Positions 12,252-44,638 of a DNA stretch of 49,483 bases are shown in pieces. The notes under the pieces are model-generated. The model did no database searches, was not told the origin of the DNA, and worked only from the letters and a program-made list of their open reading frames with translations. This stretch comes from Planctomycetota bacterium (GTDB lineage: Bacteria > Planctomycetota > PUPC01 > JABMSA01): assembly GCA_013202185.1 (NCBI GenBank), contig JABMSA010000270.1, positions 1-49,483 of the forward strand, read 5' to 3'. How positions within the stretch are numbered: the stretch's first letter is position 1; each line of letters starts with the position of its first letter. The position numbers and the translations under genes are program-made.

Positions 12252-12263
12252 TCTCGTGCCTCT

Positions 12264-16565: not shown

Positions 16566-16577
16566 ACGGTCAGCCTT

Positions 16578-29194: not shown

Positions 29195-29623
29195 CTAAAT
29201 CATCGGCGGCCCGGACCGGCCGGTCTGAGCTTCCGGGCCGGCGAGTTGATCGTCCTCCCGACGGCGCGCGGCCAGCAGGCTCACGGCCGCCGCAACGGCC
29301 TGGTTGTCGAATGGCTTTGGAAAGAACAATGCATCATGGAAGAGGTCTTGCGTGCCTTTGCTGCGCCACAACTGCGAAGCGTACAGCGAGAGGAAGATCA
29401 CAGGCAGCCCCGGCATTGCACGCTTGATCCTGCTGATGAAATCCATCTCTTCGTCTTCGGGTGTCTTGACATCTGCTATCACCACGTCGATTTCCGGCTG
29501 CCGTGCAAGCTGCTCGGCTCGCCGGCCCGGCCGGCAGGTTTGAGTATGGTGGTCTTGAGCCAGAAACATGTTTACCGCGTATGAAATGTGGGGATCGGGA
29601 CTGATGATCAGAACGTTAGCCAC
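29195..29623 (-). CDS. Stand-alone receiver-domain protein
   Basis: VANVLIISPDP ... EIDVVIADVKTPEDEEMDF ... LPVIFLS ... FPKPF is a receiver fold with no output domain. GTG at 29623 is preceded by GGAG and overlaps the kinase stop by 8 nt. The track ORF extends to 29695. TAG stop. Confidence 0.7.
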   Translation of the reverse strand: MANVLIISPDPHISYAVNMFLAQDHHTQTCRPGRRAEQLARQPEIDVVIADVKTPEDEEMDFISRIKRAMPGLPVIFLSLYASQLWRSKGTQDLFHDALFFPKPFDNQAVAAAVSLLAARRREDDQLAGPEAQTGRSGPPMI

Positions 29624-31076
29624 GCGGGCTTGCTCCTTCGGCGTTGTAGTCGCCGGCCCTATTGCCTGCCCTTTCCCCCTTTCCGAGGTATACATGGAAC
29701 CGCGAGCCTTCGTCCTTGCGGCTGTCGACGCTGATGCGGCCGCCGAACTTTCGCACGATGGCGTCGGTGACGCTCAACCCGAGGCCGGTGCCCTGGCCTG
29801 CCTCCTTGGTGGTGAAGAACGGCTCGAAAATGTGCTGCATCTCCTTTGTGTTCATCCCGATGCCGGTGTCGGCGAATGTTACGCGTATCTCATTATCGAC
29901 GTCGGCGGTGGTGATGGTAAGGGATCCGCCGTCGGGCATGGCATCGAAGGCGTTGGAGATGATGTTGACGAAGACCTGCATGAGTTGGTCGCCGCTGGCG
30001 CGGATGGTGGGCAGTCCGTCACTTAAGGCCGTTTCTATCTCGACGCGTTGGGATCGCTTGTCGTAGCGCGCCATTTTCACAGCCAGGGCGATCATCTCGT
30101 TGGCATCGAGTATTTCCTCGTCGGAGTCCATCGGGCGGGCGAAGTTCACCATGTCGCGCACTATCCGGCTGATGCGGTCGATGTGAGAGTACACCAGCGA
30201 GAGGCTTTCCTGAAGTGATGTATCGTCGGTTTTGCGCATGAGGTACTGGACGAGCGAAGAGATGGATGCGAGGGGATTGCCGATCTCGTGGGCCACGCCC
30301 GCGGCCATCTGCCCGATGACGGCCATTTTCTCCTGGTGCATGATCTGCTTCTGCAATTCGGCGGCTTCGTTTGAGTGCCGCTCGAGGAAATACATCGTGT
30401 TGTTGAAGCTCTCGCCGATGGCGGTGAGCATGTCGGGCCGGGCGTTCACATATATGCTGCAGCCCAGGCAGCTTGGGCGGCCATCGCTGTCGGGCTCGGT
30501 TTGCAGGCAATCTTTCCTGGCTATTTGCCAGCACCTCAGATCATACGAGCCGTAGCCCGGGCAGACTTCCCGCGTGCAGCCCTTTTCTTCCCAGCAGGGC
30601 AGGAGGTTGGGGTTCTCGTACCTGATATCGAAATTGCCTTCGGCTTCCGCGCGACGAATCAGGTCGACGATCTGGTCGGTGCAGCAAGCCAGTTCTTCTT
30701 CGTGCCGGCGCAGTTCTCTGGCGGCGCGCTCGCCCATGGCTGCCTGGCGGCGTAGCCGCATGCACCTATTGGCACACCAGAATATCGCGTTGGCTGCGGC
30801 CAGGCCCATAGCAATGGCATACAGCGGCCACGGTGTCTTGATTACTTGCAGAACATCAGCGGCCATCCACGCAGCGACGAGCAGCACTGGGGCAGCTATC
30901 CATGGCAGGCGGGCCGGCCAGGCCGGCCGCCCCACGGCATCGCCGCTCGAGCCGGTTGCAGCTACGGCTTCGGAATTGTTCTTTTGCGCTGCCTTAGCGT
31001 GTGTGCTATGACGTTTCATAGCAGTTGGCTCGCCGATGTTGTTTCTGTGCCTGCTCGTGCAAGGATGGCGCCTCAA
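29616..31076 (-). CDS. Sensor histidine kinase with Cys-rich (CW...C...CP...CW) sensor module
   Basis: Two TM helices and a coiled coil, then CWEEKGCTREVCPGYGSYDLRCWQIARKDCLQTEPDSDGRPSCLGCSIY. H-box AAGVAHEIGNPLASI. HATPase boxes NIISNAFDA, DTGIGM, GTGLGLSV. Start is TTG 31076 or ATG 31019. Confidence 0.85.
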   Translation of the reverse strand: MRRHPCTSRHRNNIGEPTAMKRHSTHAKAAQKNNSEAVAATGSSGDAVGRPAWPARLPWIAAPVLLVAAWMAADVLQVIKTPWPLYAIAMGLAAANAIFWCANRCMRLRRQAAMGERAARELRRHEEELACCTDQIVDLIRRAEAEGNFDIRYENPNLLPCWEEKGCTREVCPGYGSYDLRCWQIARKDCLQTEPDSDGRPSCLGCSIYVNARPDMLTAIGESFNNTMYFLERHSNEAAELQKQIMHQEKMAVIGQMAAGVAHEIGNPLASISSLVQYLMRKTDDTSLQESLSLVYSHIDRISRIVRDMVNFARPMDSDEEILDANEMIALAVKMARYDKRSQRVEIETALSDGLPTIRASGDQLMQVFVNIISNAFDAMPDGGSLTITTADVDNEIRVTFADTGIGMNTKEMQHIFEPFFTTKEAGQGTGLGLSVTDAIVRKFGGRISVDSRKDEGSRFHVYLGKGERAGNRAGDYNAEGASPRG

Positions 31077-32749
31077 TCATCGTCGTAATTTTCCGGATCA
31101 TGATCTTCATCATGGCAGGTGAGGTAACATTCGCCCGTTCGCGGGCCCAAGTCACTGAACTCCATCAGTTCGTCTTTCTCCGACGGAAACACAATGGCCC
31201 TGTCGAAGTTTATCAGATGCGTGTGGTTGGTCGTGTCGCCCTGCGTGTAGCTTACTCCATGCGGGTCGTGGCAAGCCGAACAGGGAGCCCTTTCTTCGAC
31301 AATGTGCTTCGTGTGTTCTTCGAAGCTTTCATTATTGAGGATGCTGTCGCGGCTGTGGCAGCCGTAGCACAGAGCGTAGGCTGCGGCGCTTTCGGTGGTG
31401 TAGTCGGCGGTGCTGTAGTTTCGCACGAGGATCGGCTCGAAGGCCGAGCCGTGCGGCCCGCGAGCGGCCGATGCGTCGCCGGCGTGGCAGTCGGTGCAGG
31501 TGATGACGCTGTTTTCCGTCAACGGCGGGATGAGGCTGGGAACGTCGTCATCGACCCCGGATTCAATCAAGGGATGAAAGGAGGGGTTCGACGGATCAAA
31601 TTCGAGGCGAGTGTTCGTTTGCACGATCTGCCTGCTTATCGTTGATGGCGGCCGATTGGGGTTGTCGGCGTGGCACTTGAAACAGATCTCATATTCATTT
31701 GTTGCAACAGCCACGACGGCTCCGGCGGCGTCGACGCCCGAGACCGCCTCGAGGCTTCCCGGCAAATTCGCGCCCTGCCCCTCGCGCACGGCGTGGGGGT
31801 TGTGGCAGTCGTGGCATTCCACGTGCATGGGCGCCGACAGCGGATTCTCATTGGGATCGTGAATGCCGCGATAAAGATTAAACCCGTGGGCGCTGGGTTT
31901 GCGCGCGGCGGCGGCGATGTCCTTTTCCGCCACGCTGCCGTCGTGGCAGGCCAGGCAGTTTCTCTCCTCGTCATTGTGAATGAGCAGCCTGGCATGGCTG
32001 CCCGCGTGGTGGGGGGCGTGGCAGTTTTCGCAGCCGTTGTCGGCCACGTTGGTCCATTGAGTGTGCCAGGGCCCCGGGCCGGAGCTGCTGGTGGCCGTAG
32101 ACGTGGCGTGAACGGAATTGGGCCAGCCGCCGACTTGATGACACGACACACACAAGGCCGAGCCGCGGTTGTCCATCACGAGGAATCCCGGCACGGTGTC
32201 GATGTGCGGGTCATGACACGTGATGCACTGCATCTGGCCATTCTTGTCGAGCTTGATCGCGCCGGACTTCAACGCCTGGGGGTGCTTTATCTGCGGGTCA
32301 CTTGCCGCCAGTGCCGCGTCATAATTGAACGACACCGGATGGTCATCGGAGAGGTCCGTGCCAAGCTCGAGATTGCCCTGAAGCATCTCGCCGATGGTTG
32401 CCGGCAGGGTCGTCCCTCCCGGGCCCATAGCCCCGGGGGCCAGGGTGCCGTCGTGGCAGCTCAGGCACAGCTTCGTTGAGCCGGTAGGCTGGCCGACGTG
32501 CGCCTGCAGGGTTGTGCTTTCGTACACCTTATACACACGCTTCGACAGATCGGGGTCCCACAGTGGCCGCATTCCGCCCATCCTGCCATGCGAAACGTGA
32601 CAGTACGTGCAGGCTCCTCTGGGGCTTCCTTCTACGCCGTCGAGAGGAAACTTGTGGACCGTTGCCGATTGCGCGCCTCGTGCATATCCGCTGCCCCACA
32701 GGCAGCAGAGCATCACCAGGCACGTAACCGGCTGCCGCAAGCAGGCCAT
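31073..32749 (-). CDS. Secreted multiheme cytochrome c (11 CXXCH + 1 CX3CH)
   Basis: Signal-like N-terminus. CTYCH, CLSCH, CITCH, CVSCH, CENCH, CLACH, CHDCH, CFKCH, CTDCH, CYGCH, CSACH plus CYLTCH. The first four hemes repeat the tetraheme module of the genes at 37661-39131. Confidence 0.85.
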   Translation of the reverse strand: MACLRQPVTCLVMLCCLWGSGYARGAQSATVHKFPLDGVEGSPRGACTYCHVSHGRMGGMRPLWDPDLSKRVYKVYESTTLQAHVGQPTGSTKLCLSCHDGTLAPGAMGPGGTTLPATIGEMLQGNLELGTDLSDDHPVSFNYDAALAASDPQIKHPQALKSGAIKLDKNGQMQCITCHDPHIDTVPGFLVMDNRGSALCVSCHQVGGWPNSVHATSTATSSSGPGPWHTQWTNVADNGCENCHAPHHAGSHARLLIHNDEERNCLACHDGSVAEKDIAAAARKPSAHGFNLYRGIHDPNENPLSAPMHVECHDCHNPHAVREGQGANLPGSLEAVSGVDAAGAVVAVATNEYEICFKCHADNPNRPPSTISRQIVQTNTRLEFDPSNPSFHPLIESGVDDDVPSLIPPLTENSVITCTDCHAGDASAARGPHGSAFEPILVRNYSTADYTTESAAAYALCYGCHSRDSILNNESFEEHTKHIVEERAPCSACHDPHGVSYTQGDTTNHTHLINFDRAIVFPSEKDELMEFSDLGPRTGECYLTCHDEDHDPENYDDD

Positions 32750-33817
32750 TTACTGGTCCCCCGGTCGAAGCTGAAAAACCTGTACTCGGCGATTGTAGGA
32801 ATCGCTTACGAACATCCTGTCGGCCGAGTCGATGAATATGGCGCCGGGCAGGCAGAACTGCCCCGCTTCCCATCCCTCCTCGCCAAATGCCATCAGCAAG
32901 CGGCCCGAGCTGTCGAAAGCCTGGATGTTCTCAAAGCGCGCGTCGACCACCCAGATGTGCTCGGCGCCGTCCACGGCCACGGCTTTGGGCAACGAAAAAT
33001 TCCCGGGCCGATTGCCTTCCTCGCCGAACGATCGAATGTGCTCGCCGGCCAGGTCGAATATCTGAACACGAAAATTGAAACTATCGCATACGTATATTCT
33101 ACCATTTGCCACGGATAATCCGGTGGGGTAATTGAACTGTCCGGGGTGCCCGCCGGGCCCGCCAAACTCGAGCTTCACCCGGCCGCGCAGGTCGAAAGCC
33201 AGCACCCGGTGCCCGGAAGTGTCGGCCACGTACAGCAGCGAGTTGCTCTGGCTGAAGGCTATACCCGTTGGCCGGAGCATTCGCTCGGAGCTGAAACGCG
33301 AAAGAAGCTTGCCTTCCTGGTCCAGCACGGCGATGGAAGAGGCGGGCGGATCAGTCACGTAAAGACGGCCCTGCGTGTCCATAGCGATGCCGATGGGGGT
33401 CTGAGTGACCTCGTTCAGGGGCATCTGTGTATAGCGCCGGTCATCGAGCCCAAAGCGGTGGATGCACCTCCCGGCCGAGTCCACCACAAGCAGCTCCCGC
33501 GACGCCGTGAGCAGCAGGCCCTGGGGCGTAACAAGTGCGCCCGGCTGCCTGGCTCCGAACATCGTAGAGATCAGTTTCTGCCAGAAGGACTTGCCCGGGC
33601 GCAGGTCGTCGGCAGTGACGAACTGGCCGAGGCAAACGACCCGCGGCTCGAGGGGAGGCGCCGGCCACGTCGGCGAGTTCTGATTCGCCCTGAGGATCTC
33701 TCCGGGCGGAGTTGCGCAGCCCAGCGCGGCGCAGCACAGCAGCAGCGCCGCTGCGGCCTTGCAGGCCCTTCGTTTCGGAGCCGCCGAAAAGGAGTTGCCA
33801 TTGGTTTCATGCACCAC
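32750..33817 (-). CDS. NHL-repeat beta-propeller protein (probable lipoprotein or secreted)
   Basis: Repeated units of the type GQFNYPTGLSV..GRIYVCDSFNFRVQIFD and GNFSLPKAVAVD...IWVVD...NIQAFD. N-terminal LLLCCAALGCATP. The track ORF starts at TTG 33844. GTG 33817 follows GAGGAA and is preferred. Confidence 0.85.
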   Translation of the reverse strand: MVHETNGNSFSAAPKRRACKAAAALLLCCAALGCATPPGEILRANQNSPTWPAPPLEPRVVCLGQFVTADDLRPGKSFWQKLISTMFGARQPGALVTPQGLLLTASRELLVVDSAGRCIHRFGLDDRRYTQMPLNEVTQTPIGIAMDTQGRLYVTDPPASSIAVLDQEGKLLSRFSSERMLRPTGIAFSQSNSLLYVADTSGHRVLAFDLRGRVKLEFGGPGGHPGQFNYPTGLSVANGRIYVCDSFNFRVQIFDLAGEHIRSFGEEGNRPGNFSLPKAVAVDGAEHIWVVDARFENIQAFDSSGRLLMAFGEEGWEAGQFCLPGAIFIDSADRMFVSDSYNRRVQVFQLRPGDQ

Positions 33818-33827
33818 GGGCTTTTCC

Positions 33828-35822
33828 TCAGAACCGCCGCTCAAGACCGACAGTAAGTGACGTTCGCTGGACCTTTCCGCTGGAGTAGTTGCCTCTTGAG
33901 TGCTCCACGTTTGCAGCGAATCTGAAGGTGCGGAACGCCCACGTCAGCCCGGCGCGGCCAACGATCGAGCTTGTGGGGCCGGCGTCCGAGCTTTCCTCCT
34001 TGCGGTACCCGGCGGCATAGGTGAGGTTCAGGGTCTTGGTAACGGTCTGCTTGATGGTTGCCCTCATGTTGTACACCCGCGTTTCGCGCCGGTTGGGGGG
34101 GAAGTATTCGTAGTCGGAATAATCGGCGGAAAGGTTGAGACGCACGCCCCTGCGGCGGCCGGCGTAGTAGGCGGCGGTGTAGCGCGTTGAGCGATAGGGA
34201 GACGTTGCCAGATCGGAATCGCGCCTCTCTGCGGAGAGGGTGAGCCGGCCCAGGCGCTGCTTGGCGCCTATGGTGGTTGTGCGTTCGTCGCTCTCCACCA
34301 CACCGGGCAAGCTGGGCGTGATGGTCACGTCTCGCCTGGTATGGCGAATATACGGTGTGAGCCCGAACGAGAAGGCGTGGCGGATATAGCAGGTGTATGT
34401 GTTTGTCGCTTGGCGCTGGTTGCCGGGGCTTGTGTATTGATAACTGACCCGCACTTCATCGCCTTCGTTGATCCCGCTGCCGAAGGGGGCAATGCGGAGG
34501 GTTGTCCTCCCTGCGATTTCTATCACGATGTAGTCCGTGATCTCGTCGTGAGGGCTGCCGCTCGGATCCGTGACGGAAATGGTGTTTTGAATGATATTCT
34601 GTTCGACCAGGAACGTTTCCTGCAACGAGCTGAGATGGTGGCTTTCGTCCACAACGAACAAAGTACTCGCGGTTCCTTTGTCATCCCTGATGTCGTAGTC
34701 GGCCGAGCACCCGAGAAACAGGGTGCCCAGGCTGTTGAGCTTTTGATAGTTGACGGATAACGCCCCCCCGCGGCGGCCGGTTGTGCGGCCGGTGCTGTAT
34801 CGGTCTTGTGATGTGCGGATGCGGCCGGTGGTCTTGAGGCTTCGGTACAATTTGTGCGTGAAACCCACCCGGGCATTCCAGAGCTGCTGGGCGAGTTGAT
34901 CTCGCTGCCTGTCTTTGTAGCTGAAGTCGTATGTCGTCGAGAGATTGTCGGTGTGCTGCAGTTTGAGCTGCGTTCCCAAGTCGAGGTCGCTGAGCGACGT
35001 GTTACCCCGCCTGTCGCTGTAGCGCAGGCTGCTTGTCAGGCGGCCACGCCGCTCGTCGTCCAGAGAAACATTGTGACGGATCTGTATCTCGTCTTTTGCC
35101 GAGGAATCTTCAAGAAGGTTTGCCCGCGTTTCGGAGTGAATGTATCCCAGCGACACTCTTCCTGCCCGGCCGAGGCTGGTGGCGACGTCATATGCGAGGC
35201 TCGAACGTTCCGCAGTAGAACTCTCGGCCCCTTCGGTTGCGGCTTGCTCAACAACCTGCTCACGATCGAAGGTCAGCCTCATGGGCGTGCGCCTGTCGGC
35301 CTTCCTGAGGGTGAAACCGTGGCGGGTACGGCTCACATGCAAGCTCGAGGTGAAACGCCTCGGCACGACCTGGTCGCTTCGGCTGGCATGCAACCGCAGC
35401 GGAAAACGCTTCTCCTTGAGAATGTCGGCGGTCAGGTCGTACTCCATGAGGCTGCCCCTGCTGCTGCCGGAGGTGTCGCCTTCCTTGTATTTTTCCTGCG
35501 AGGCGCCGATCCGGCAATCGGCTGCCAACTCCACGAAGTTGGGATGGAGAATGGCGCCGGTCGTCTTCAGATCGAGGAACTCACTGACAACCGTAGAGGC
35601 GGCCTCGAGCTCATTGCCTGCGCTCTGGCTCTTCTCTCTGGCGGTTTGATACGTCGCGCCGATGCTTCCTGATGGCTTTTTCACTTTCAACAACTGAAGC
35701 CTCGACTTGCTGTCTGGCTTCCCCCTACAAGACGCGGCCAGCGCCGCCGTCAGCAGCAGCGCGGCACAAGTTCCAAGAACACGCCACTTTTCCCTATGAT
35801 GCACGCTTGCCCCTTTCCGCAA
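33828..35822 (-). CDS. Predicted large outer-membrane beta-barrel protein
   Basis: 664 aa. Signal peptide ending LAASC. Long run of short alternating hydrophobic/polar segments rich in Y/R/T/S/G. C-terminal ...SLTVGLERRF (terminal aromatic residue typical of OMPs). No heme motif. Start TTG 35822 or GTG 35804. Confidence 0.6.
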   Translation of the reverse strand: MRKGASVHHREKWRVLGTCAALLLTAALAASCRGKPDSKSRLQLLKVKKPSGSIGATYQTAREKSQSAGNELEAASTVVSEFLDLKTTGAILHPNFVELAADCRIGASQEKYKEGDTSGSSRGSLMEYDLTADILKEKRFPLRLHASRSDQVVPRRFTSSLHVSRTRHGFTLRKADRRTPMRLTFDREQVVEQAATEGAESSTAERSSLAYDVATSLGRAGRVSLGYIHSETRANLLEDSSAKDEIQIRHNVSLDDERRGRLTSSLRYSDRRGNTSLSDLDLGTQLKLQHTDNLSTTYDFSYKDRQRDQLAQQLWNARVGFTHKLYRSLKTTGRIRTSQDRYSTGRTTGRRGGALSVNYQKLNSLGTLFLGCSADYDIRDDKGTASTLFVVDESHHLSSLQETFLVEQNIIQNTISVTDPSGSPHDEITDYIVIEIAGRTTLRIAPFGSGINEGDEVRVSYQYTSPGNQRQATNTYTCYIRHAFSFGLTPYIRHTRRDVTITPSLPGVVESDERTTTIGAKQRLGRLTLSAERRDSDLATSPYRSTRYTAAYYAGRRRGVRLNLSADYSDYEYFPPNRRETRVYNMRATIKQTVTKTLNLTYAAGYRKEESSDAGPTSSIVGRAGLTWAFRTFRFAANVEHSRGNYSSGKVQRTSLTVGLERRF

Positions 35823-35844
35823 TGTTCAATCCCGGCGGCACAGA

Positions 35845-36447
35845 TCAACTTTTCAACAGGAGCCGGTTTTCTGAGCCGTGCGGGTCGTGGCAACGTGTGC
35901 AATCCTCCTTACTTGCGTGAGCATCGTTGCTTTCGATGAATGTGGGCGCCGTGAGGTCGTGGCAGGTGGCGCAGAGCTTTTCGGGGGGCTTTTTCAGCAG
36001 GGCCTTGTTTTCTGATTTGTGCGCCGAATGGCACTGCAGGCATGCCCACGCCGCCACCGGGCCGTGCCAGAATGTCGATTGCTCGTTGAAGCCCGTGTGG
36101 CACTTCGAGCACATTGCCTTCACGCGTGGCGTCGCGCTTGATCTGACCTCGATCATGTCATGACAGCCGTCGCACTTGCCCTTCTTGTAGGGCTCGTGGG
36201 TGTAGACCACCCTAGCGGGCTTCGGGCTGTCACCCACCGACTCGAGCCCGCCGTTCTGCTCATCGGGGATCGTGGTGGGCACTTCCGGCTCGGGCACCCC
36301 GTCGAAGAAGAAGCTGAGGGTTTGGTACCTTTGTTCGGGCGTGCAGTGGGCGCACACAATAACGGCGGCGGCGCACAGCATAGCAGCAATCCACGGCCGC
36401 GCGGTCGCCGGGCTTTTCGCGCATTGCTTGCCGGGTGTGCCGTTCAT
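35845..36447 (-). CDS. Pentaheme c-type cytochrome (c7/c3-like)
   Basis: CDGCH, CSKCH, CLQCH, CATCH, CTRCH. Hydrophobic N-terminus. ATGA overlap with the upstream NHL gene. Confidence 0.85.
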   Translation of the reverse strand: MNGTPGKQCAKSPATARPWIAAMLCAAAVIVCAHCTPEQRYQTLSFFFDGVPEPEVPTTIPDEQNGGLESVGDSPKPARVVYTHEPYKKGKCDGCHDMIEVRSSATPRVKAMCSKCHTGFNEQSTFWHGPVAAWACLQCHSAHKSENKALLKKPPEKLCATCHDLTAPTFIESNDAHASKEDCTRCHDPHGSENRLLLKS

Positions 36448-37556
36448 TGTTCGGTCGGCTGTGCAACCACCTTGGACGTTCCGAAGGCAAAAACGCTCAC
36501 TTTGTTCTTGCCATACTGGCTTGTGACCAGTATCAAGTACTGCGCGTCGAAGCTTGGCGCAATGTATTCCCGGAATAATTCGAGATTGTCGTAGTCTACT
36601 ATTACCTGTGCGGGCAGGAGGAGGCCCCCGTTTCCGTCTTCGTCGCCGGCGCCGCCGAAGTGCATCAGTGCCCGGCCCTCCTTGTTGAAGAGCTTTACGA
36701 TGCGCATTTTGTTGTCGACGACGTACACGATGCCCTCGCGGTCCACCGCTATGCCCTTTGGCAGCGCGAAGCGGCCGGGGGTGTCTCCGGCCTTGCCGAA
36801 TTGCAGGAGCGGCGTGCCGGTGACATCAATCTTCTGGACGCGGAAGTTAAGCATATCGCTGACGAGAATATGCCCGTCGCTGTCGAGTGCGAAGTTCGAC
36901 GGATAGTTGTATTCGCCCGGCTCTACGCCCCTGGCGCCCAGGGTGCGTTTCAGCTTGCGGGTCTTCTTGTCATATACTTTAATGTTGTGCTCCTTGATAT
37001 TGAGCACGAATACCTCTTCTCCGTACACGAGCACGTCGGCGGGCCGGAAGTCTTTTGTCTCGCCGTACGCGGTGACGTATGTGCCATCAGGACGATACAC
37101 GAGCACCTGGTTACGAACGGTATCGGCCACGTACAGCAGGCCGTCCTCGGCGAAGAAGATATTGATAGGCATCTTCAGCTTGCCCGGGCCCGTATTGCCT
37201 AGGGTCTTGCGGCGCTTGTTGCGCATGTCCATCACTACAATGCATGAGTCGCCACTGTCGGCAACGTATACCTTGCCGTCGCGAATGGCCACACCATAGG
37301 GCTTGACGATTGTTTTTCTGGCGGTCGGACGTTCCCCGACAATGAAGCGCTCGAGCCAGCCGGCCTCAGGCGCGGTGTCTTCGGAGCGTTTGAGGTTGCA
37401 CAGGAACTGTATGCGCGGTTCCTCCGGCGCGGGTGGGAAGAAAACGGGGTCCTTCGTGGCGACGGCCTGGATGTCGTCTCTCACGGGGCTTGCACAGCCG
37501 GCAACCGCCAGGCAGATGATCAGTATGGATATCGCTGCGGAAAAGGTTCTGGCCAT
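36444..37556 (-). CDS. NHL-repeat beta-propeller lipoprotein
   Basis: The ATG at 37556 gives MARTFSAAISILIICLAVAGCASP (lipobox VAGC). Repeats of the type KPYGVAIRDGKVYVADSGD, GEYNYPSNFALDSDGHILVSDMLNFRVQKID, GRFALPKGIAVDREGIVYVVD. The track ORF is 5'-extended to 37763. Confidence 0.85.
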   Translation of the reverse strand: MARTFSAAISILIICLAVAGCASPVRDDIQAVATKDPVFFPPAPEEPRIQFLCNLKRSEDTAPEAGWLERFIVGERPTARKTIVKPYGVAIRDGKVYVADSGDSCIVVMDMRNKRRKTLGNTGPGKLKMPINIFFAEDGLLYVADTVRNQVLVYRPDGTYVTAYGETKDFRPADVLVYGEEVFVLNIKEHNIKVYDKKTRKLKRTLGARGVEPGEYNYPSNFALDSDGHILVSDMLNFRVQKIDVTGTPLLQFGKAGDTPGRFALPKGIAVDREGIVYVVDNKMRIVKLFNKEGRALMHFGGAGDEDGNGGLLLPAQVIVDYDNLELFREYIAPSFDAQYLILVTSQYGKNKVSVFAFGTSKVVAQPTEQ

Positions 37557-37603
37557 GGTAGGGTTCTTCTTTGCTGGGAATCGACCACCGGCACCACAAG
37601 CTT

Positions 37604-37639
37604 CCCCGTTCCGAAGCTGATTGGAACTCCGGAACGGGG
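37604..37639 (-). repeat. Perfect 10-bp inverted repeat (intercistronic stem-loop)
   Basis: CCCCGTTCCG (37604-37613) and CGGAACGGGG (37630-37639) with a 16-nt loop. It lies in the 104-nt gap between the tetraheme gene and the NHL lipoprotein gene. No U-tract follows on the transcribed strand. Confidence 0.5.
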
Positions 37640-37660
37640 GAGGCGGGATTTGACGAGTGA

Positions 37661-38284
37661 TTACTTCTGAGAGGTATGACAGGCAACGCACAGAGCGCTG
37701 CCAGTGTTGGGTGCGCGCAGGAGGCTGTCCGCGTCGGTGTGCGGTGTGTGGCAGGTTGAGCACTCGATCCTGTGCTCTGTGACCATGGTGCCGGTGCCGG
37801 TGCCGTCATCCACCTCATGAGAGAACAGAGGCAGGTATGGCGAGGTTGCGGGCGGGTCCACCAAAATACCCTCCATACGGCCGCCCCGAACAGGCACCGT
37901 GCCGGCGCGACGGCTGCTGTCGCCATAGTCCACGCCGACCGGGTGGTCCTTGGTGAGGTCCGTGCCGAGCGCATGATCTGCCAGCGTCTCGCCGGGCGTG
38001 TCTGATTGAGAAATGGCAGTGACGCCGTCGTGGCAGCTCATGCACAGAAGTGACCCATGACCCAGAGAGGCGTCTGCACGCACGGCGATTGCGACTCCAT
38101 CCTGCTGAGCCCACAGATAGTCATCCTCTGTCGATCCGTGAGGAATGTGACAAGGCTTGCACACCTCCCCGTTGGCGATATCGTAATCTGCTGACATGTT
38201 GTGAGGGCCATCAGCCACGCCTCCGAAAGACGCCATCGAGACCGCACCAACAAACATCATTGCCAAAATCACTATTCTAGACAT
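37661..38284 (-). CDS. Tetraheme c-type cytochrome (paralog 2)
   Basis: 207 aa with a signal peptide. CKPCH, CMSCH, CSTCH, CVACH. Has the DHPVGVDY motif. Same length and motif order as the gene at 38508-39131. Confidence 0.85.
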   Translation of the reverse strand: MSRIVILAMMFVGAVSMASFGGVADGPHNMSADYDIANGEVCKPCHIPHGSTEDDYLWAQQDGVAIAVRADASLGHGSLLCMSCHDGVTAISQSDTPGETLADHALGTDLTKDHPVGVDYGDSSRRAGTVPVRGGRMEGILVDPPATSPYLPLFSHEVDDGTGTGTMVTEHRIECSTCHTPHTDADSLLRAPNTGSALCVACHTSQK

Positions 38285-38507
38285 TATTCATGACTCCTTT
38301 GCTAAGGTCCGAAAAAAAACAGAAACGCAAAGTCCAAACAGCTCTTACTTCTTCAGTGTTGCCGCAGCACCACCTCCTTTCATTCTTTTTTCTGTCGAGG
38401 TCAATATGTGGGCTTCTGCCTTGTCTCATCCCTGAACCGTAGCATCTGCCTTTCGTTTACTGTTTTCGCCGCATTCCCTGCGCGACGTCTGAAATCATGG
38501 CAATTAC

Positions 38508-39131
38508 TCACCAGGTCGCATGACACGCAATGCACATTGCACTGCCGTCATTTACAAAGCGAAGCAAATAGTCTTTGCTGGTGTTGTGCACCGCGTGGCA
38601 AGTGGCGCATTCCACTTGAACTTTCCCGGTTGTGGCGTTCTCGTAAAGCGGCAGATATTTGCCGCTGCCGGCGTCGATGCCCTCCTGATCCTCGTAGATT
38701 ATCGTTTTCTCCGCGTACCGCGAGCTGTCGGGATATTCGATGCCTACCGGATGATCGTCGGTCAATTTCATTCCGACGGACGACCGGCCTGTGAGTATCC
38801 AGCCGCCCGAGTTGTCGCCGCCAGTGTAGTTGTCGCGGACGGTTTGCCCGTCGTGGCAACCCAGGCACATCAGCGATTCATCTCCGAGGGTGGCGCCCTC
38901 CCACGTTGTGAAGGCGGTTCCGGGCTGGTAGGCGTGATTCCACAAGTAGCCTACAGTGTCGTCGCCGTCGTGCGGGGTGTGGCACGGCAGGCACAGCTCC
39001 GCGTTCGAGTTCGACCCTCTGAGATCGTGCTTGCTGTTTTTCATGTTCGCCAGCGATTCACCTGTCCACGGCGGCCCGATGACCAAAGCCGATACAAGTG
39101 CTATTCCTATGATGCGTTTCACGGCTCTCAT
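38508..39131 (-). CDS. Tetraheme c-type cytochrome (paralog 1)
   Basis: 207 aa from the ATG at 39131 (MRAVKRIIGIALVSALVIGPP signal peptide). CLPCH, CLGCH, CATCH, CIACH. Has the DHPVGIEY motif. The track ORF is 5'-extended to 39215. Confidence 0.85.
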   Translation of the reverse strand: MRAVKRIIGIALVSALVIGPPWTGESLANMKNSKHDLRGSNSNAELCLPCHTPHDGDDTVGYLWNHAYQPGTAFTTWEGATLGDESLMCLGCHDGQTVRDNYTGGDNSGGWILTGRSSVGMKLTDDHPVGIEYPDSSRYAEKTIIYEDQEGIDAGSGKYLPLYENATTGKVQVECATCHAVHNTSKDYLLRFVNDGSAMCIACHATW

Positions 39132-39265
39132 AACTGCATACCCTGTGACCCTTTCTTTTCGTTTCCTTTTGGTGTGAACGCATCCTTGCGAACATTCATT
39201 TGTGAGGTTATCCATCTGAAAACCGGCTGAGAGGCCAACGTGCGCCCTCTCGCCCGTTTTTCAAT

Positions 39266-40699
39266 TCACGGTGCTTTCTCAGCCTCCTCTTCTTCCGGAG
39301 CCCCCTTTCCTCTTGGCGGCGAGACCGCCCGCGCCGAGTAGTTCACCGCCTCCAGACGATCGTATCGTTTCGGGAGGTGGCAGCCGGAATCACAGTTTCC
39401 GCCGTTCTTTGTCCCGCTGAAGCCGATGGGCATGTCCCACTCTCCGAAGCGTGCGGTTGCCCTGACCAACTTGGGTGCATCCGTAGCGTGCGACGCGTGG
39501 CACGCGTGACACGCCCTTCCCTTGCGTTTCTTGTTTACATGCAGGAAGTGCAGGTTGCGGCTGCCATTGCGGAAATTGGTGGCCGTTTCGGTCTTGGCCT
39601 CGAGGACGAGCGCGTTGTTGTGGCAGCCGAAACACAGGGCGTATTCTTCCAGCTTGAAAGGCTTATAAAAATCGGGGGAGTAGCGCTTCGAGAGAAGCTG
39701 CGGTTTGTGCGGCCCGTGCACGTCGTGGCAGCCGGTGCAGGTGCCTTCCTGCACGGGAGCGTGCTTGAACTTGGGTCGCACTACCGTTCTTCGGATGTCG
39801 GGGATCGTGCGCCCGTCGAACATCTTGGATCCAGTGTGGCAGCCCAGGCACTGCTCCACCTGCGGCTTGCGCCCGAGCCCCACTACGTCGGAGACGTGTG
39901 GCTGGTGGCACTGCTCGCAGCCGTGATCTCTGAGGGCCGCCGCGTGCGAGTTGACCTTGTCGTCGCCAACCATTTTCTTGTCTTCGTGGCACTTGTAGCA
40001 CAAGTCGGGCCGGGCGGCCACGAGGAGCTTGGGTGCGTCGGAGCCGTGCCCCTTGTGACATGTCAGGCACCCTTGCTCAACCGGCTTGTGAACGCTCTTG
40101 TAAGTTTTGGAGTCATCGATTATCTCATCGTGGCACAGCGTGCACGTCTCGCGCTCGGTGCCTTTCAGCAACTTTGCGTGGTCGGAGTCATGCGCTTCGT
40201 GGCAGGCCGTACACAGCTTGAGCCCCACCGGCGCGTGAACGTGCTTTTTTCCGCCGGCGGTTGGCACGTCGTCGTGGCACGTTATGCAAAGCTCGCCGGG
40301 CTCTTCATTGAGCAGCAGCATTTCGTTGTTGGCACTATGAGGATTGTGGCAAGCGGCGCATTCGCCTGCCTCCGCCGGGAAGTGCTTCACCTTTTGGCTT
40401 ACCACGCCGATGTGGCAACCCGAGCAGAGCTTCTCGGACTCTCGCGCCAAGCCAAACTTGTGCCTGGCTTCGTTGCTCACGGTGTGGCAACTGCTGCACA
40501 TGTCGGCTGCGACCGGTCCGTGGACAAACTTGTTCTTCTTGAGGGCGTCGTGGCAGCCGGCTTCCGAGCAGCTTCTGCCCTTGAGGCTGGCAGGCGGCTT
40601 GGGTTTGGCGGCCTCGCCGGCCGGGGCCGGGCTGGCGTGAAGCACAGCCAGGATCAAGCCGCTTACCGCTGTGAGTGTGTGGGTTGTTCTCAACGTCAT
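39266..40699 (-). CDS. Secreted multiheme cytochrome c (13 CXXCH + CX4CH + CX3CH), c7/c3-repeat type
   Basis: Signal peptide. CSSCH, CSGCH, CAACH, CITCH, CTACH, CTLCH, CLTCH, CYKCH, CEQCH, CLGCH, CTGCH, CFGCH, CHACH plus CSEAGCH and CDSGCH. Repeated K..H.PV...C..CH units. ATG at 40699; the track begins at TTG 40702. Confidence 0.85.
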   Translation of the reverse strand: MTLRTTHTLTAVSGLILAVLHASPAPAGEAAKPKPPASLKGRSCSEAGCHDALKKNKFVHGPVAADMCSSCHTVSNEARHKFGLARESEKLCSGCHIGVVSQKVKHFPAEAGECAACHNPHSANNEMLLLNEEPGELCITCHDDVPTAGGKKHVHAPVGLKLCTACHEAHDSDHAKLLKGTERETCTLCHDEIIDDSKTYKSVHKPVEQGCLTCHKGHGSDAPKLLVAARPDLCYKCHEDKKMVGDDKVNSHAAALRDHGCEQCHQPHVSDVVGLGRKPQVEQCLGCHTGSKMFDGRTIPDIRRTVVRPKFKHAPVQEGTCTGCHDVHGPHKPQLLSKRYSPDFYKPFKLEEYALCFGCHNNALVLEAKTETATNFRNGSRNLHFLHVNKKRKGRACHACHASHATDAPKLVRATARFGEWDMPIGFSGTKNGGNCDSGCHLPKRYDRLEAVNYSARAVSPPRGKGAPEEEEAEKAP

Positions 40700-40729
40700 C
40701 AAAACCGATGTCCTGCGTTGCCTGGGTCG

Positions 40730-41275
40730 TTACAGTTCTTCGAGGAGATCGGCGTCGACCTCCATCGCAGCGCCCTGACCGATGAAGTCTACCTGGATCA
40801 CAAACCGCGCCTTGCCGCACGTGCGAACGACTATGCCCTCGACGCCCGCAAACGGCCCCGCGCTGATGCGGCACCGCTTGCCCCGAGCCACCTGGGGGTA
40901 AGGATCCAGCAGGGCATCGGCCTGGAGGGCTCGCTCAATCGCCGTGAGTTCCCTCACGAACCCTGCCTGGTCGGGTATGTCGAGCACTTGGGCGATCCGG
41001 TTGGTGGTCATCGCGGCGTAGCGGTCGCCGCCGCTGCCGCACATGAATATGTAAGAAGGAAAGAGCGGAAGAAGAACATGACGTTTTCTCCCGCCCGACA
41101 CCTTCACGCGCTCGATCATGGGCAAGAAGTACCCGATCCCGAGCCGGTGCAAGTCCCAAGCCAGAGCCTTTTCTGCACGCGCCTTTGTGTGAGCTACCCA
41201 CCACTGACCGTCCAACTGAGCGAGCCGCTCAACGGACGCGGACAAAACCGGCGGATTCTCGGATAACTTAAGCAT
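40730..41275 (-). CDS. NusG paralog (RfaH/UpxY/LoaP-like operon-specific antiterminator)
   Basis: 181 aa from the ATG at 41275. NGN-like WWVAHTKARAEKALAWDLHRLGIGYFLPM ... LFPSYIFM. KOW-like GKRCRISAGPFAGVEGIVV. It is the first gene of the cytochrome block. Confidence 0.8.
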   Translation of the reverse strand: MLKLSENPPVLSASVERLAQLDGQWWVAHTKARAEKALAWDLHRLGIGYFLPMIERVKVSGGRKRHVLLPLFPSYIFMCGSGGDRYAAMTTNRIAQVLDIPDQAGFVRELTAIERALQADALLDPYPQVARGKRCRISAGPFAGVEGIVVRTCGKARFVIQVDFIGQGAAMEVDADLLEEL

Positions 41276-41468
41276 CGGAAAGGATCGCCCGGGCACACTC
41301 CGTCCCTGTCGGTGCACCGAAATCAGACAGTTGCGGTAGACCTACAGGGGTGGCATGCACCCATAATCTCTCAGTTGTTAGACGTTCGCGGCTTCTCTGA
41401 CGGATGCTCTCTCGCTTCCGATTCTCACGAGGCCCGAGTTGTAGGTGCCATCGCAAGAGGAGAATTTC

Positions 41469-41492
41469 GCCAGCCATCTTCTTGGCTGGCGG
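41469..41492 (-). promoter_or_regulatory. Perfect 9-bp stem / 6-nt loop hairpin in the operon leader (possible attenuator or processing site)
   Basis: CGCCAGCCA-tcttct-TGGCTGGCG. On the transcribed (minus) strand it is followed by AAATTCTCCTCTT. It lies between the sigma54-like promoter and the NusG-paralog start. Confidence 0.45.
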
Positions 41493-41519
41493 CCGACACA
41501 CCCGTCGTGTTACTAACCA

Positions 41520-41535
41520 AGCAATTTACGTACCA
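41520..41535 (-). promoter_or_regulatory. Candidate sigma54 (-24/-12) promoter for the NusG-paralog / cytochrome operon
   Basis: The minus strand reads TGGTACGTAAATTGCT. The consensus is TGGCAC-N5-TTGCW. There is one mismatch and the GG-N10-GC spacing is correct. It lies about 245 nt upstream of the ATG at 41275. A sigma54-dependent activator gene is divergent. Confidence 0.45.
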
Positions 41536-41586
41536 CGCAGCCGAAAAAGGGGCAAAATGCCTCATTGCGAGAGCGTAACACGTGGC

Positions 41587-41608
41587 TGCACCGTGATTTA
41601 CAAGTGCA
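41587..41608. promoter_or_regulatory. Inverted repeat TGCACC-N11-GTGCA (possible enhancer-binding-protein site)
   Basis: TGCACC (41587-41592) and GTGCA (41604-41608), about 55-85 bp upstream of the -24 element. The half-sites resemble NtrC-type TGCACC/GGTGCA, but the spacing differs from the classical site. Confidence 0.2.
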
Positions 41609-41758
41609 AGTAGAGCCTCCACCCGCATGCTGCATTCGCCGGCAGATTTCCCATTGCTGGTATTCCGGGAGCCGGTTGCGTCCCAACAGTGAGAAACTCG
41701 CTAATCGCCATCGAAAAGCCACCGGCGAAATATTCTTAGAAAAATCCGGATCTTTTTC

Positions 41759-41787
41759 TTGACTTTTAGAATTCTATGAGGTATAAT
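41759..41787 (+). promoter_or_regulatory. Near-consensus sigma70 promoter facing the kinase remnant and sigma54 activator gene
   Basis: TTGACT (41759-41764), exactly 17 nt, TATAAT (41782-41787), inside a conspicuously AT-rich stretch (about 41720-41810) of an otherwise GC-rich window. Confidence 0.5.
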
Positions 41788-41843
41788 ACTTAGAGAGTTC
41801 TCACAGATGAGATTGCCGTGACGTCGAGGCCGACGCCTCCTAA

Positions 41844-42218
41844 TTGCTCCGCCGTCGAGGTGCGTTGGACATGACCACTTGCAGCAACCGACATGGCTCG
41901 CGACCATGCCAACCAACGACCCCAAATGAGGGGGCGTTGATGAAGCGGCGCGGGCGCCCGGCCGATACGCAAGAGCAATCTTGCCGCGCGTTCGAACCCT
42001 TTTACAGCGCGAAAATCCCAAGGGAAGGCACGGGGCTGGGCCTTACGCTGTTGCGGAGGCCGGTCGAGCAGCAGGGAGGGCGCATCACTCTGAACAGCGC
42101 TCCGGGTGAAGGAACAGTTGCTACGGTGTCGTTCGAGGTCGTTGGGCAAGGGGCCAAGGCCGACGAAGCCTCCATCGGCAGCAGCGAACCACCTGCGGAT
42201 CGGAGGGCCGATGCCTAA
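41844..42218 (+). pseudogene. Histidine kinase remnant (only the C-terminal HATPase G-box region)
   Basis: From about nt 41960 the ORF reads AFEPFYSAKIPREGTGLGLTLLRRPVEQQGGRITLNSAPGEGTVATVSFEV, the last roughly 55 residues of a HATPase_c domain. No H-box or N-box is found in any upstream frame. It overlaps the regulator start by 8 nt, like an intact kinase-regulator pair. Confidence 0.5.
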
Positions 42219-43575
42219 GACAATACTCGTTGTCGACGACGAGCGAACCGTTCGCGAAACCCTGGCCAGCGTCCTCGAAGACACGGGCTTCAAGGTATCC
42301 GTTGCGGCCGACGGCCTCTAGGCCGTGCAACTGCTGGCCGATGGGCAGTTCCACGTGGCCCTGGTCGACATCCGCATGCCCGGCCTCGACGGCCTGCAGG
42401 TGCTCACCAGATCCCGCGAGATATCTCCCAACACACAGGTGATCATCATCACGGCATTTGGCACGGTCGACAGCGCCGTGGAGGCCATCAAGCTGGGTGC
42501 CAGCGACTACGTTGTCAAGCCGTTCGTTTTCGACGACATCATTATAAAGATCAACCGCCTGCTCGACATGCAACGCCTCACCGCAGAGAACACCTTCTTG
42601 CGCACCGCCCTGGGCGAGCAGTACCGCTTCGACGGAATCATCGGCGAGAGCAAGCAGCTTCAGGCCCTTCTGGCGACCGTCGAGAAGCTTGCGCGAACGC
42701 GCACCACCGCCCTGATCATCGGCGACAGCGGCACCGGCAAGGAGCTGATCGCGCGCGCCATTCACTACGGCGGAATCACCAAGGCCGGAGAATTCGTTGC
42801 CATCAACTGCGCCTCGATGCCCGAGAACCTGGTGGAAAGCGAACTCTTCGGACACCGGCGCGGAGCTTTCACCGGGGCCGACGCCAACAAGCCCGGGCTC
42901 TTCGAGATCGCCGACCGAGGCACAGTGTTCCTCGACGAAGTGAGCAACATGCCCCTCCCAATGCAGGCAAAGCTGCTGCGGGCAATAGAGGAAAAGCAAA
43001 TAATGCCGCTGGGCGCCACGGAGCCCGTCAGCGTCGAAGCGCGAATACTGTGCGCAACAAATGCCGACCTGAAAACCGAAACCGACGCCGGGCGCTTTCG
43101 CGAAGACCTGTACTACCGCCTCAGCGTAGTCGAGATGCGCATTCCGCCACTGCGCGAGCGCCGCGAAGACATCCCGGCGCTCATCGACCATTTCGTGGCA
43201 CAATACGCCGGCGAACTCAAGAGCGCCTGCCGCGGAGCTACAGACAACGCCCTGCGAGCAATGATGGCATACTCGTGGCCGGGCAACGTCCGCGAGCTCA
43301 AGAACGTAATCGAGCGGGCGATGATCTTCGCAGACAACCGGGAGATCGACGTCGGCGACCTCGCCTTTGTGTCCGAGACCACCGAAGGAGCCCCGCAGGC
43401 GGACAGCGACCTGAGGTCCGCCGTACGAGCTTACGAAAGGCAGCACATCCTGCAGGCGCTCACCGGCAACAACTTCGACAAGGCCGCCACGGCCCGGGCG
43501 CTCAATGTGGGCGTCAGCAGCCTTTACAGAAAAATGGACGAATTCGGCATCGGCAAACGGCCTCCGAAACAATAG
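42211..43575 (+). pseudogene. Sigma54-dependent response regulator (NtrC family: receiver + AAA+ + Fis HTH) interrupted by an in-frame TAG at 42319-42321
   Basis: - ATG at 42211 is preceded by GGAGGG.
- MPKTILVVDDERTVRETLASVLEDTGFKVSVAADGL-TAG-AVQLLADGQFHVALVDIRMPGLDG is one continuous receiver domain in a single frame.
- AAA+ motifs GDSGTGKE and GAFTGA are present, with a C-terminal HTH.
- The downstream open part is 42325..43575. Confidence 0.8.
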
Positions 43576-43592
43576 AAGATAGAGGTCCTCAA

Positions 43593-44405: not shown

Positions 44406-44638
44406 CATAACCGCAGCCGCCGACCTAGCACAGTGGCACAATGCCGGTTGGCGTTCGGCCTTGAGCCGCCTGAACGGGAGTCGAGATTATCGACTGTCTT
44501 TCACTTCAGTCCCGCAGGGGACCACAGACGGCCAGCCTCGGGCGCGAGCCCGTGGAAAGCCGTGCCGAAAACCCAAGAGCCCCCGCGGGGGCGGCAGATT
44601 ACATCGGATCGACGCCGAACGATTGAATAGTTGAGAGC

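Follow-up and report, generated by a model that had tools for sequence, protein, structure and literature searches.

Specialised NusG paralogs are known on operons for lipopolysaccharide (LPS), capsule, pili and conjugation, toxins or polyketides. For RfaH the recruitment sites are 12-nt ops elements, which match the consensus pause (PMC7819879), and UpxY is recruited to RNA polymerase paused at opsX sites in the leader, through the non-template strand and the upstream DNA, with pause hairpins assisting (Saba et al. 2024, PMC11685472); downstream of the opsX pause sites, the start codon of upxY is found at +9 to +111 (PMC11685472). Cytochrome or respiratory cargo is not mentioned in a 2021 review of NusG proteins. 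Here we describe a locus of the Planctomycetota in which a NusG paralog is the first gene of a multiheme-cytochrome operon. The locus lies on the minus strand of the window, by which we mean the whole stretch of DNA analyzed, 49,483 bases with 61% G+C that make up one complete contig of a metagenome-assembled genome (MAG; locus tags HQ592_). The paralog gene is preceded by a predicted sigma-54 promoter and by a leader containing a conserved 27-nt box, and its linkage to this type of locus recurs in seven lineages. On balance, we lean towards reading the region as a transplanted elongation-control module placed under sigma-54 control.

A sequence-only reading of the window had already suggested that a NusG paralog serves the cytochrome genes, and was aware of no description of such a case. 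Our literature search agrees with the latter point: it returned no work linking NusG paralogs with multiheme or c-type cytochromes, nothing relevant on NusG paralogs in Planctomycetes, nothing on porin-cytochrome clusters in Planctomycetes that ties them to NusG, and no report of a known porin-cytochrome conduit with a NusG paralog.

Results

A NusG Paralog outside the Named Subfamilies

The first gene of the operon encodes a 181-aa protein (NCBI record NQT19317.1, annotated as "hypothetical protein"). We assigned its start to the ATG at 41275, not to the upstream GTG of the mechanical open reading frame (ORF), based on an alignment with 27 homologues in which the N-terminus MLKLSENPP is kept. 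Pfam models detected a NusG NGN domain (42.8 bits, above the cutoff) and a KOW domain (19.4 bits, just below the cutoff). Among the NCBIfam models, UpxY (NF033644) gave the top score, 83.2 bits, below its family cutoff of 100, and the scores for RfaH (TIGR01955; 58 bits versus a cutoff of 144.5), LoaP (34.6 bits versus 125) and housekeeping NusG (TIGR00922; 19.6 bits versus 135.7) also lay below theirs. In an AlphaFold2 (AF2) model (predicted local distance difference test, pLDDT, of 79), the NGN domain is accompanied by a long linker helix and a KOW domain of five strands. Foldseek ranks NusG and RfaH from elongation complexes as the closest structures to this model, and a PDB sequence search with the family profile gave 8f5g, a NusG-RNA complex, as its top match. 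The KOW domain is modeled as a beta-KOW (pLDDT 56–77), although such a prediction cannot exclude fold switching. Given the NCBIfam scores together with the NGN/KOW model and its structural matches, the 181-aa protein is by sequence and predicted fold a specialised NusG paralog, not the housekeeping NusG, and fits no named paralog subfamily. The sequence-only reading had placed an NGN+KOW protein of this length at the head of the block and taken it for a paralog, and on both counts it agrees with these results.

Linkage of the Paralog to a Cytochrome-Type Locus in Seven Lineages

We compared the window with other loci, which carry L-numbers (L081 and so on); the six cytochrome-linked comparison sets are metagenome contigs. 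The closest homologues of the paralog, which lie on these contigs, are 81, 70, 70, 66, 65 and 63% identical to it. The paralog is linked to a cytochrome-type locus in seven lineages (the window, L081, L082, L083–85, L087, L088 and L089). A gene for a multiheme cytochrome (456–478 aa) comes directly after it in the window, L081, L082, L083/84/85 and L089, with the cytochrome start 6–40 nt past the paralog where contigs reach beyond the paralog. On the contigs that are long enough (L083 and L084), small cytochromes, an NHL protein, a 200-aa cytochrome and a 641-aa barrel come in the same order as in the window. The contigs of L087 and L088 stop ∼300–670 nt past the paralog stop, and these two loci were assigned to the group by their divergent kinase or sigma-54 regulator.

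On the other side of the paralog, six of the seven lineages carry a divergent sigma-54 response regulator; on L087, only a kinase and a cut ORF of 344 aa are seen. In four lineages (L083–85, L087, L089 and, as a remnant, the window) a small histidine kinase is found in between; L088 has no adjacent kinase. Radical-SAM genes of the alternative heme pathway come after the regulator in the window, L083/84 and L088, and ccsA-like and hemA genes also follow it in the window and L088. In neighbor-joining (NJ) trees the cytochrome-linked paralogs form one clade nested among polysaccharide-linked ones, and they have residues F164, I165 and E180 in common, as well as the length of 181 aa.

A Predicted Sigma-54 Promoter and a Divergent Regulator

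The GC dinucleotide of the −24/−12 element TGGTACGTAAATTGCT is located about 246 nt 5′ of the paralog ATG. This element has one mismatch to TGGCAC-N5-TTGCW and the canonical spacing, and all seven lineages match that consensus exactly or with one mismatch. The pattern TGGYAC-N5-TTGCW has one match on both strands of the 49 kb (0.10 expected from shuffles), and it stands 136–267 nt before the paralog ATG in 7/7 cytochrome-linked lineages, versus 0/73 polysaccharide-type loci of the same paralog family (29 kb of upstream sequence). The DNA around the promoter is only 56–64% identical between lineages and is largely unalignable. Because the motif separates the two types of loci in this way, and because six of the cytochrome-linked lineages have a divergent sigma-54 activator, we regard a sigma-54 promoter upstream of the paralog as well supported by sequence comparison. 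The motif had first been pointed out, ∼245 nt upstream and with a single mismatch, in the sequence-only reading, whose estimate that the pattern occurs about once per 2.6e5 positions is arithmetically correct.

About 120–155 nt upstream of the −24 element, the seven-lineage alignment contains conserved palindromic islands of the forms TTCYCAC-N4-TGGGA and ...TGGGAA, candidate sites to which the activator would bind. Within the leader, the element GTCTAACAACTGAGAG at 41368–41383 (−) is kept as TCTNA-N4/5-TGAGA in L081, L082 and L083. It looks much like the TCYCA-N4-TGGGA palindromes further upstream and may serve as a third site for the regulator or form a small hairpin.

The divergent operon of kinase and regulator has a near-perfect sigma-70 type promoter in an AT-rich patch (conserved form TTGACW-N17-TATAAT). 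Between this promoter and the regulator (41788–42215, +), the kinase is reduced to a stump at 41967–42134. The regulator gene (ATG at 42211) contains an in-frame TAG at 42319–42321, where 3/4 orthologues have CAG (Gln); the remainder of the gene is intact and its product 74% identical to the L083 regulator. A recent nonsense mutation, strain variation or an error in the assembly could each account for the TAG, and the regulator may be defective in this genome. The sequence-only reading was thus right that a sigma-54-dependent activator is encoded divergently (it is of the NtrC type, with GAFTGA, the motif that contacts sigma-54), but the regulator and paralog start codons are 936 nt apart, with a kinase remnant between the genes and a stop codon within the regulator's frame. 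A related kinase (36% identity) closes the cytochrome operon (29616–31076, −), and the two-component system may therefore still be served.

A Conserved 27-nt Box in the Leader

Aligning the orthologous leaders, which the sequence-only reading had put forward as a way to find an ops-like motif, revealed a 27-nt box beside the start codon that this reading had not seen. The aligned leaders show an invariant block, GGTGCACCGAC[A/G][G/T]GGAC[G/A]G[A/G]GTG[C/T]GCCCGG. In the window the box ends 13 nt before the paralog ATG, and it is unique there even when three mismatches are allowed (0.00 expected). The box is also found in most polysaccharide-type loci of the paralog family. A hidden Markov model (HMM) of the box gave 63 matches on the paralog strand versus 2 on the opposite strand (90 sequences, 1.21 Mb), with one match per locus except for one locus with two. 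The consensus of 55 distinct copies is gGTGCACCGACrGGGACrGAGTnyGCsC, many positions carrying 1.4–2.0 bits, and its purine runs show G/A exchanges only. The box usually lies 33–105 nt before the paralog ATG; in a distant branch (L029, L063, L071, L072 and L080) it lies 61–158 nt after the paralog stop, ahead of sugar genes, indicating that the box is tied to the transcript and not to the translation start of the paralog. Two tandem copies, or a degenerate second copy, were seen at L053:9925-10000, L065:1803-1873 and L088:∼5620-5645.

We scanned metagenome contigs for the exact box core CCGACRGGGACRGAGTGYGC and found it at no fewer than 120 loci (at least 120). Among the matches listed, 38 are just upstream of the paralog and 9 just downstream, and at least 65 loci have no paralog nearby, the box heading polysaccharide genes. 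At those paralog-less loci whose first downstream ORF had been clustered with a scanned representative, a GT4 initiating transferase comes first at 8 loci among the matches listed, and the others include an ABC-2 (Wzm-type) permease, a flippase, a Wzz/GNVR protein, CpsB, an acyltransferase and a sugar kinase. A co-oriented ORF starts within 300 nt downstream of the box in 54 of the 61 listed loci whose flanks are long enough. By these distributions, the box is a strand-specific 5′-leader tag of envelope-polysaccharide operons, with or without an adjacent paralog, and it resembles ops and opsX in its placement. The exact core also precedes genes with no obvious polysaccharide function at L115, L117, L182 and L189 (an IS200-like transposase, a 771-aa protein, a Pfam-less family and a beta-lactamase-like protein); these matches may be chance or represent further cargo types.

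Because polysaccharide operons carry this box at their heads whether or not they have a paralog of their own, cross-talk with these operons appears likely from the sequence comparison. Of the earlier view that the paralog is committed to the cytochrome locus, the linkage itself persists through seven lineages, but "dedicated" is too strong a word for a protein whose box is shared in this way.

Could the box be something other than a loading site for the paralog, such as the site of another regulator, an alternative sigma promoter, or an RNA element for translation or stability? We consider this unlikely. It is true that an 8-bp palindrome, GGTGCACC, opens the box, that GGAG occurs within it, and that an upstream arm often completes a hairpin of the form CGTCGG-TGCA-CCGACG, with a stem of at least 5 bp in 36% of copies versus 2% for shuffled flanks. 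However, this arm amounts to only 1–4 bp in the cytochrome-linked loci, and it was dropped as a defining part of the box. An alternative stem, GGTGCAC/GTGCGCC, was likewise dropped, since position 16 varies without compensation and the box folds no better than shuffled sequence (z = +1.1 in the window). Without excess folding stability, the box looks more like a sequence signal than like an RNA structure, and no Rfam family was detected in the leader, either at gathering thresholds across the whole window or in an E-value search of 41200–42300. Against these readings, the box keeps strictly to one strand and runs in the same direction as the genes that follow, forms one continuous conserved block and not two boxes with a spacer, and in the cytochrome loci is found about 190 nt past the predicted sigma-54 start. 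Its distance to the next start codon varies from about 20 to >200 nt, and in one branch it comes after the paralog gene, where it is not bound to the paralog's translation start. Finally, the box co-occurs with the paralog family across the whole class.

The Paralog Family Resides Mostly in Polysaccharide Loci

The paralog belongs to a family of ∼182-aa proteins confined to Planctomycetota, mostly Phycisphaerae. It has 943 homologous protein clusters, every named one of which comes from Planctomycetota or Phycisphaerae MAGs, and its matches in species-representative genomes number 473 loci, almost all of them titled Planctomycetota. We surveyed the neighborhoods of the best 80 of these 473 loci. 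In most of those with enough flank, the paralog resides in a polysaccharide locus, in which Wza-like, Wzc-like, CpsB and Wzy-like genes are followed by the paralog and then by a GT4 initiating transferase, a flippase and GT1 enzymes; among the best 80 of the 473 species-genome loci, none has cytochromes beside the paralog. Some MAGs carry two family members (L044/L053; L060/L061).

This distribution raises the alternative that the protein is an ordinary polysaccharide antiterminator that was moved beside the cytochromes by rearrangement and acts in trans, with no role in cytochrome expression. A trans-acting regulon is plausible insofar as the same box is present at polysaccharide loci and at operons that lack a paralog, and the window paralog is still 60–65% identical to polysaccharide-linked members. 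Against this alternative, the arrangement of sigma-54 promoter, leader, box and paralog is kept in seven lineages whose paralogs have diverged to 63–81% identity, and the cytochrome follows at 6–40 nt wherever contigs extend, while the surrounding leader DNA has become largely unalignable. The paralog would be transcribed from the predicted promoter of the cytochrome operon, so that its product would be present exactly when the operon is on, and the cytochrome-linked paralogs have clade-specific residues. We therefore judge a mere rearrangement to be quite improbable.

The Leader Hairpin

Just below the predicted start, the leader contains a hairpin with a perfect stem (CGCCAGCCA/TGGCUGGCG; −18.5 kcal/mol, z = −2.7 versus shuffles), directly followed by AAAUUCUCCUCUU, which is no U-run. 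At the corresponding place in L081, whose paralog is the 81%-identical one, there is a hairpin of 11 bp with another sequence (z = −2.6), and the other five lineages have no hairpin at that leader position. The sequence-only reading had described a perfect 9-bp hairpin at 41469–41492, which is real but one base off (41468–41491). It had also cast the hairpin as the controlling leader element; this did not hold, as the hairpin recurs only in L081 and the conserved element is the 27-nt box. That the hairpin is an attenuator or terminator to be overcome by the paralog is most improbable, in spite of its stability and of its counterpart in the closest relative: it was rejected as a terminator for want of a U-tract, of a call in the terminator scan and of conservation, and it lies ∼150 nt upstream of the box, so that a paralog loading at the box could not act on an element already transcribed. 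It may stabilize the 5′ end or do nothing.

The Cytochrome Operon and the Genes beyond It

The tight operon consists of 10 genes spanning 11.7 kb (41275 to 29616), with gaps of −4 to 223 nt (Table 1). The paralog stop (40730) and the first cytochrome start (40702) are 27 nt apart, and the five cytochromes contain 13, 4, 4, 5 and 11 CXXCH motifs. The 664-aa protein has a lipobox, a C-terminal Phe and only five detectable homologues; it gave no Pfam match and no match in a PDB sequence search, and no similarity to MtrB was detectable at the sequence level. About 28 long strands make up its all-beta model (pLDDT 65), and the top structural matches are LptD, MtrB (6r2q_B, Mtr complex) and ushers, at template modeling (TM) scores of 0.3–0.37. 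The predicted products of the operon are multiheme cytochromes that are secreted, NHL propellers and a large barrel of the outer membrane, which probably form an electron conduit of the porin-cytochrome type.

The minus strand stays coding and uninterrupted for about 37 kb in all, down to about 3884. A 741-aa NapC/NirT-type cytochrome comes after a 282-nt gap and ccmF after a 476-nt gap, followed by a 505-aa ORF, a ccmB fusion, ccmC, a 310-aa cytochrome, hemL and a polyprenyl synthase; six nqrA-F-like genes (11124–16577, −) precede a kinase and NuoF-like and formate-dehydrogenase-like genes. The assignment of the genes at 15–16.6 kb (nqrA-like) and 19.6–20.6 kb (the 310-aa cytochrome) to the minus strand follows from third-position G+C content (GC3) and Pfam. 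The very long transcription unit of cytochrome, ccm and possibly nqr genes proposed earlier is therefore correct in gene content, the ccm and nqr-like genes being on the same strand and perhaps on the same transcript, but the tight operon is limited to its 10 genes and 11.7 kb. On the plus strand, past the regulator, positions 43050–49280 carry an alternative set for heme biosynthesis, divergent from the cytochrome operon and syntenic in L083 and L088. It comprises a ccsA-like gene, hemA, two radical-SAM genes and AhbA/B-like siroheme decarboxylase domains.

A triad of barrel (700 aa), NHL propeller and 566-aa cytochrome that is homologous to window positions 31073–35822 was found at L210:9130-14834 and L211:8937-15176. 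The barrels are distant (23–24% identity), and divergent cytochrome/NHL fusion genes lie beside the triad. The paralog, the leader box and the sigma-54 motif are all missing at the L210 and L211 triads. Because the triad exists there without them, the comparison indicates that the control module is an addition to a pre-existing barrel-NHL-cytochrome core.

Table 1. Positions of the features of the locus in the window.
Feature	Position	Strand	Basis or conservation
Two candidate activator-binding palindromes, TTCTCACTGTTGGGA (41681–41695) and TACCAGCAATGGGAA (41648–41662)	41648..41695	−	Conserved islands, seven-lineage alignment
Sigma-54 type −24/−12 element TGGTACGTAAATTGCT; predicted start near 41509	41520..41535	−	Single window match; kept in 7/7 lineages
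Leader hairpin, about +18 to +41; 9-bp stem, 6-nt loop, no U-tract	41468..41491	−	Folding versus shuffles
Conserved leader box GGTGCACCGACAGGGACGGAGTGTGCCCGG (core 41293–41312); candidate ops/opsX-like loading site	41289..41318	−	Leader alignment, HMM, core scan
Specialised NusG paralog, 181 aa, NGN + KOW, first gene of operon	40730..41275	−	Pfam, NCBIfam, AF2, Foldseek
Nine tightly packed genes downstream of paralog	29616..40702	−	Pfam, motif counts, AF2/Foldseek; order matched in L083, L084
Cytochrome, 13 CXXCH	39266–40702	−	
4-heme cytochrome	38508–39215	−	
4-heme cytochrome	37661–38284	−	
NHL propeller	36444–37763	−	
5-heme cytochrome	35845–36447	−	
Predicted outer-membrane beta-barrel lipoprotein, 664 aa	33828–35822	−	
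NHL propeller	32750–33844	−	
Cytochrome, 11 CXXCH	31073–32749	−	
Histidine kinase, last gene of operon	29616–31076	−	
NapC/NirT cytochrome, ccmF/B/C, 310-aa cytochrome, hemL, polyprenyl synthase, nqrA-F-like, kinase, NuoF-/formate-dehydrogenase-like	3884–29333	−	
Divergent sigma-70 type promoter TTGACT-N17-TATAAT, kinase/regulator operon	41759..41787	+	Kept in L081, L087, L088, L089
Divergent histidine kinase remnant, last ∼56 codons align	41967..42134	+	Orthologues 259–303 aa
Sigma-54-dependent NtrC-type response regulator: receiver, AAA+ with GAFTGA, HTH_8	42211..43575	+	Pfam, motif

Discussion

The protein family, the conserved gene order, the conserved promoter and the strand-specific leader box can all be read from the compared sequences, and we combine them in the following proposal. 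The two-component system, consisting of the divergent NtrC-type regulator and its kinase, would activate the sigma-54 promoter at 41520–41535. The resulting leader of ∼234 nt would end in the 27-nt box, the presumed signature of a Planctomycetota-specific NusG paralog family, and the first gene of the transcript would supply that paralog. RNA polymerase would pause at the box and swap NusG for the paralog, by analogy with RfaH at ops and UpxY at opsX, and the modified polymerase would then resist pausing, as well as termination by Rho or at hairpins, over the 10 genes and 11.7 kb of the operon and perhaps beyond. Induction would be self-reinforcing, since the operon makes the paralog as its first product. 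What we infer in this proposal is pausing and loading at the box, antitermination, self-reinforcement and the physiological role of the operon.

Several observations weigh against this proposal. With the premature TAG and the kinase stump, the promoter may be inactive in this genome or depend on a different activator. Cytochrome and polysaccharide loci have nearly the same box, which therefore cannot confer operon specificity on its own. The terminator scan found no terminator-like sites between the operon genes on the coding strand, and a need for antitermination would hence rest on Rho or on pausing. The AF2 model of the paralog, with its predicted beta-KOW, gives no hint of RfaH-like autoinhibition. 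Finally, the cytochrome-linked clade has low bootstrap values (0.19–0.29 in a numpy NJ bootstrap), so the trees suggest its monophyly without establishing it.

The simplest history is that a module of box and paralog from a polysaccharide locus was placed atop a consolidated cytochrome operon, under a sigma-54 promoter. The full form of this account holds that there is a Phycisphaerae-type system like RfaH/ops, made up of a ∼182-aa paralog family and a 27-nt tag of envelope-polysaccharide operons, and that in one lineage the whole module was copied behind a sigma-54 promoter under two-component control, where it drives the 11.7-kb operon for an outer-membrane cytochrome conduit; taken as a whole, we advance it tentatively, with slightly more doubt than belief.

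Among processive-antitermination modules with NusG paralogs, the cargo class, the candidate recruitment box, the phylum and the sigma-54 front end all appear to be new. A conserved case with respiratory multiheme cytochromes would widen the list of cargoes of specialised NusG proteins and extend this type of elongation control to respiration. It would also suggest that long operons for secreted, cofactor-heavy proteins need guarding against premature termination as well. If the proposal is true, the capacity for respiratory or extracellular electron transfer would be set at the level of transcription elongation, and the shared tag might couple the cytochrome operon to the production of matrix polysaccharide. 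The box is a candidate recruitment signal for an uncharacterized Planctomycetota paralog family, in a phylum with very little experimentally defined gene regulation, and it offers a practical marker of the heads of polysaccharide operons in MAGs. The combination of a sigma-54 promoter with an elongation factor would amount to two-layer control, in which initiation is gated by a sensor and elongation is secured by the first gene product; such an arrangement is amenable to reporter constructs, even in a heterologous host.

One described system for comparison is UpxY/opsX, with its NusG paralogs of Bacteroides capsule operons. UpxY is the best-scoring named family for the window paralog; in both systems the paralog gene opens its proposed target operon, the leader has a conserved signal tens of nucleotides ahead of the start codon, often just past a hairpin, and the wider paralog family is found in polysaccharide loci. 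Unlike a UpxY protein, however, the window paralog scores below the family cutoff (83 versus 100 bits), and neither the window nor the other loci that extend past the paralog have an UpxZ-like second gene, a cytochrome being found there instead. Furthermore, the planctomycete box is nearly invariant across loci and not locus-specific, the window promoter is predicted to be sigma-54 dependent and not invertible, and both the cytochrome cargo and the phylum, Planctomycetota, differ.

The resemblance to RfaH/ops (JUMPstart) of Proteobacteria is one of regulon logic: a short leader element tags several long envelope-polysaccharide operons, some of them without an adjacent factor gene. In our reading, the planctomycete box also has G(−10)...T(−1)G(+1) spacings that would be compatible with the consensus pause that ops matches. 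In contrast to RfaH, the window paralog scores 58 versus 144.5 bits and has a beta-KOW rather than an alpha-hairpin in its AF2 model, and it heads the operon on which it is proposed to act, a place that rfaH does not normally take. No match to the E. coli ops sequence GGCGGTAGnnTG lies in the leader; two one-mismatch matches to it elsewhere are below chance expectation.

LoaP, from the polyketide and polysaccharide clusters of Firmicutes, differs in that it recognizes an RNA hairpin, whereas the planctomycete box is a sequence without excess structure, and the LoaP model gives the window paralog 34.6 versus 125 bits. It is similar in being a specialised paralog that is encoded beside a long target operon and acts through a leader element. 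As for the cargo, the NHL propellers of the window module and the lack of detectable sequence similarity to MtrB set it apart from porin-cytochrome conduits of the MtrCAB/PccFGH type. Like those conduits, however, it combines genes for signal-peptide-bearing multiheme cytochromes with one for a large barrel predicted for the outer membrane, and MtrB (6r2q_B) is among the top structural matches of that barrel.

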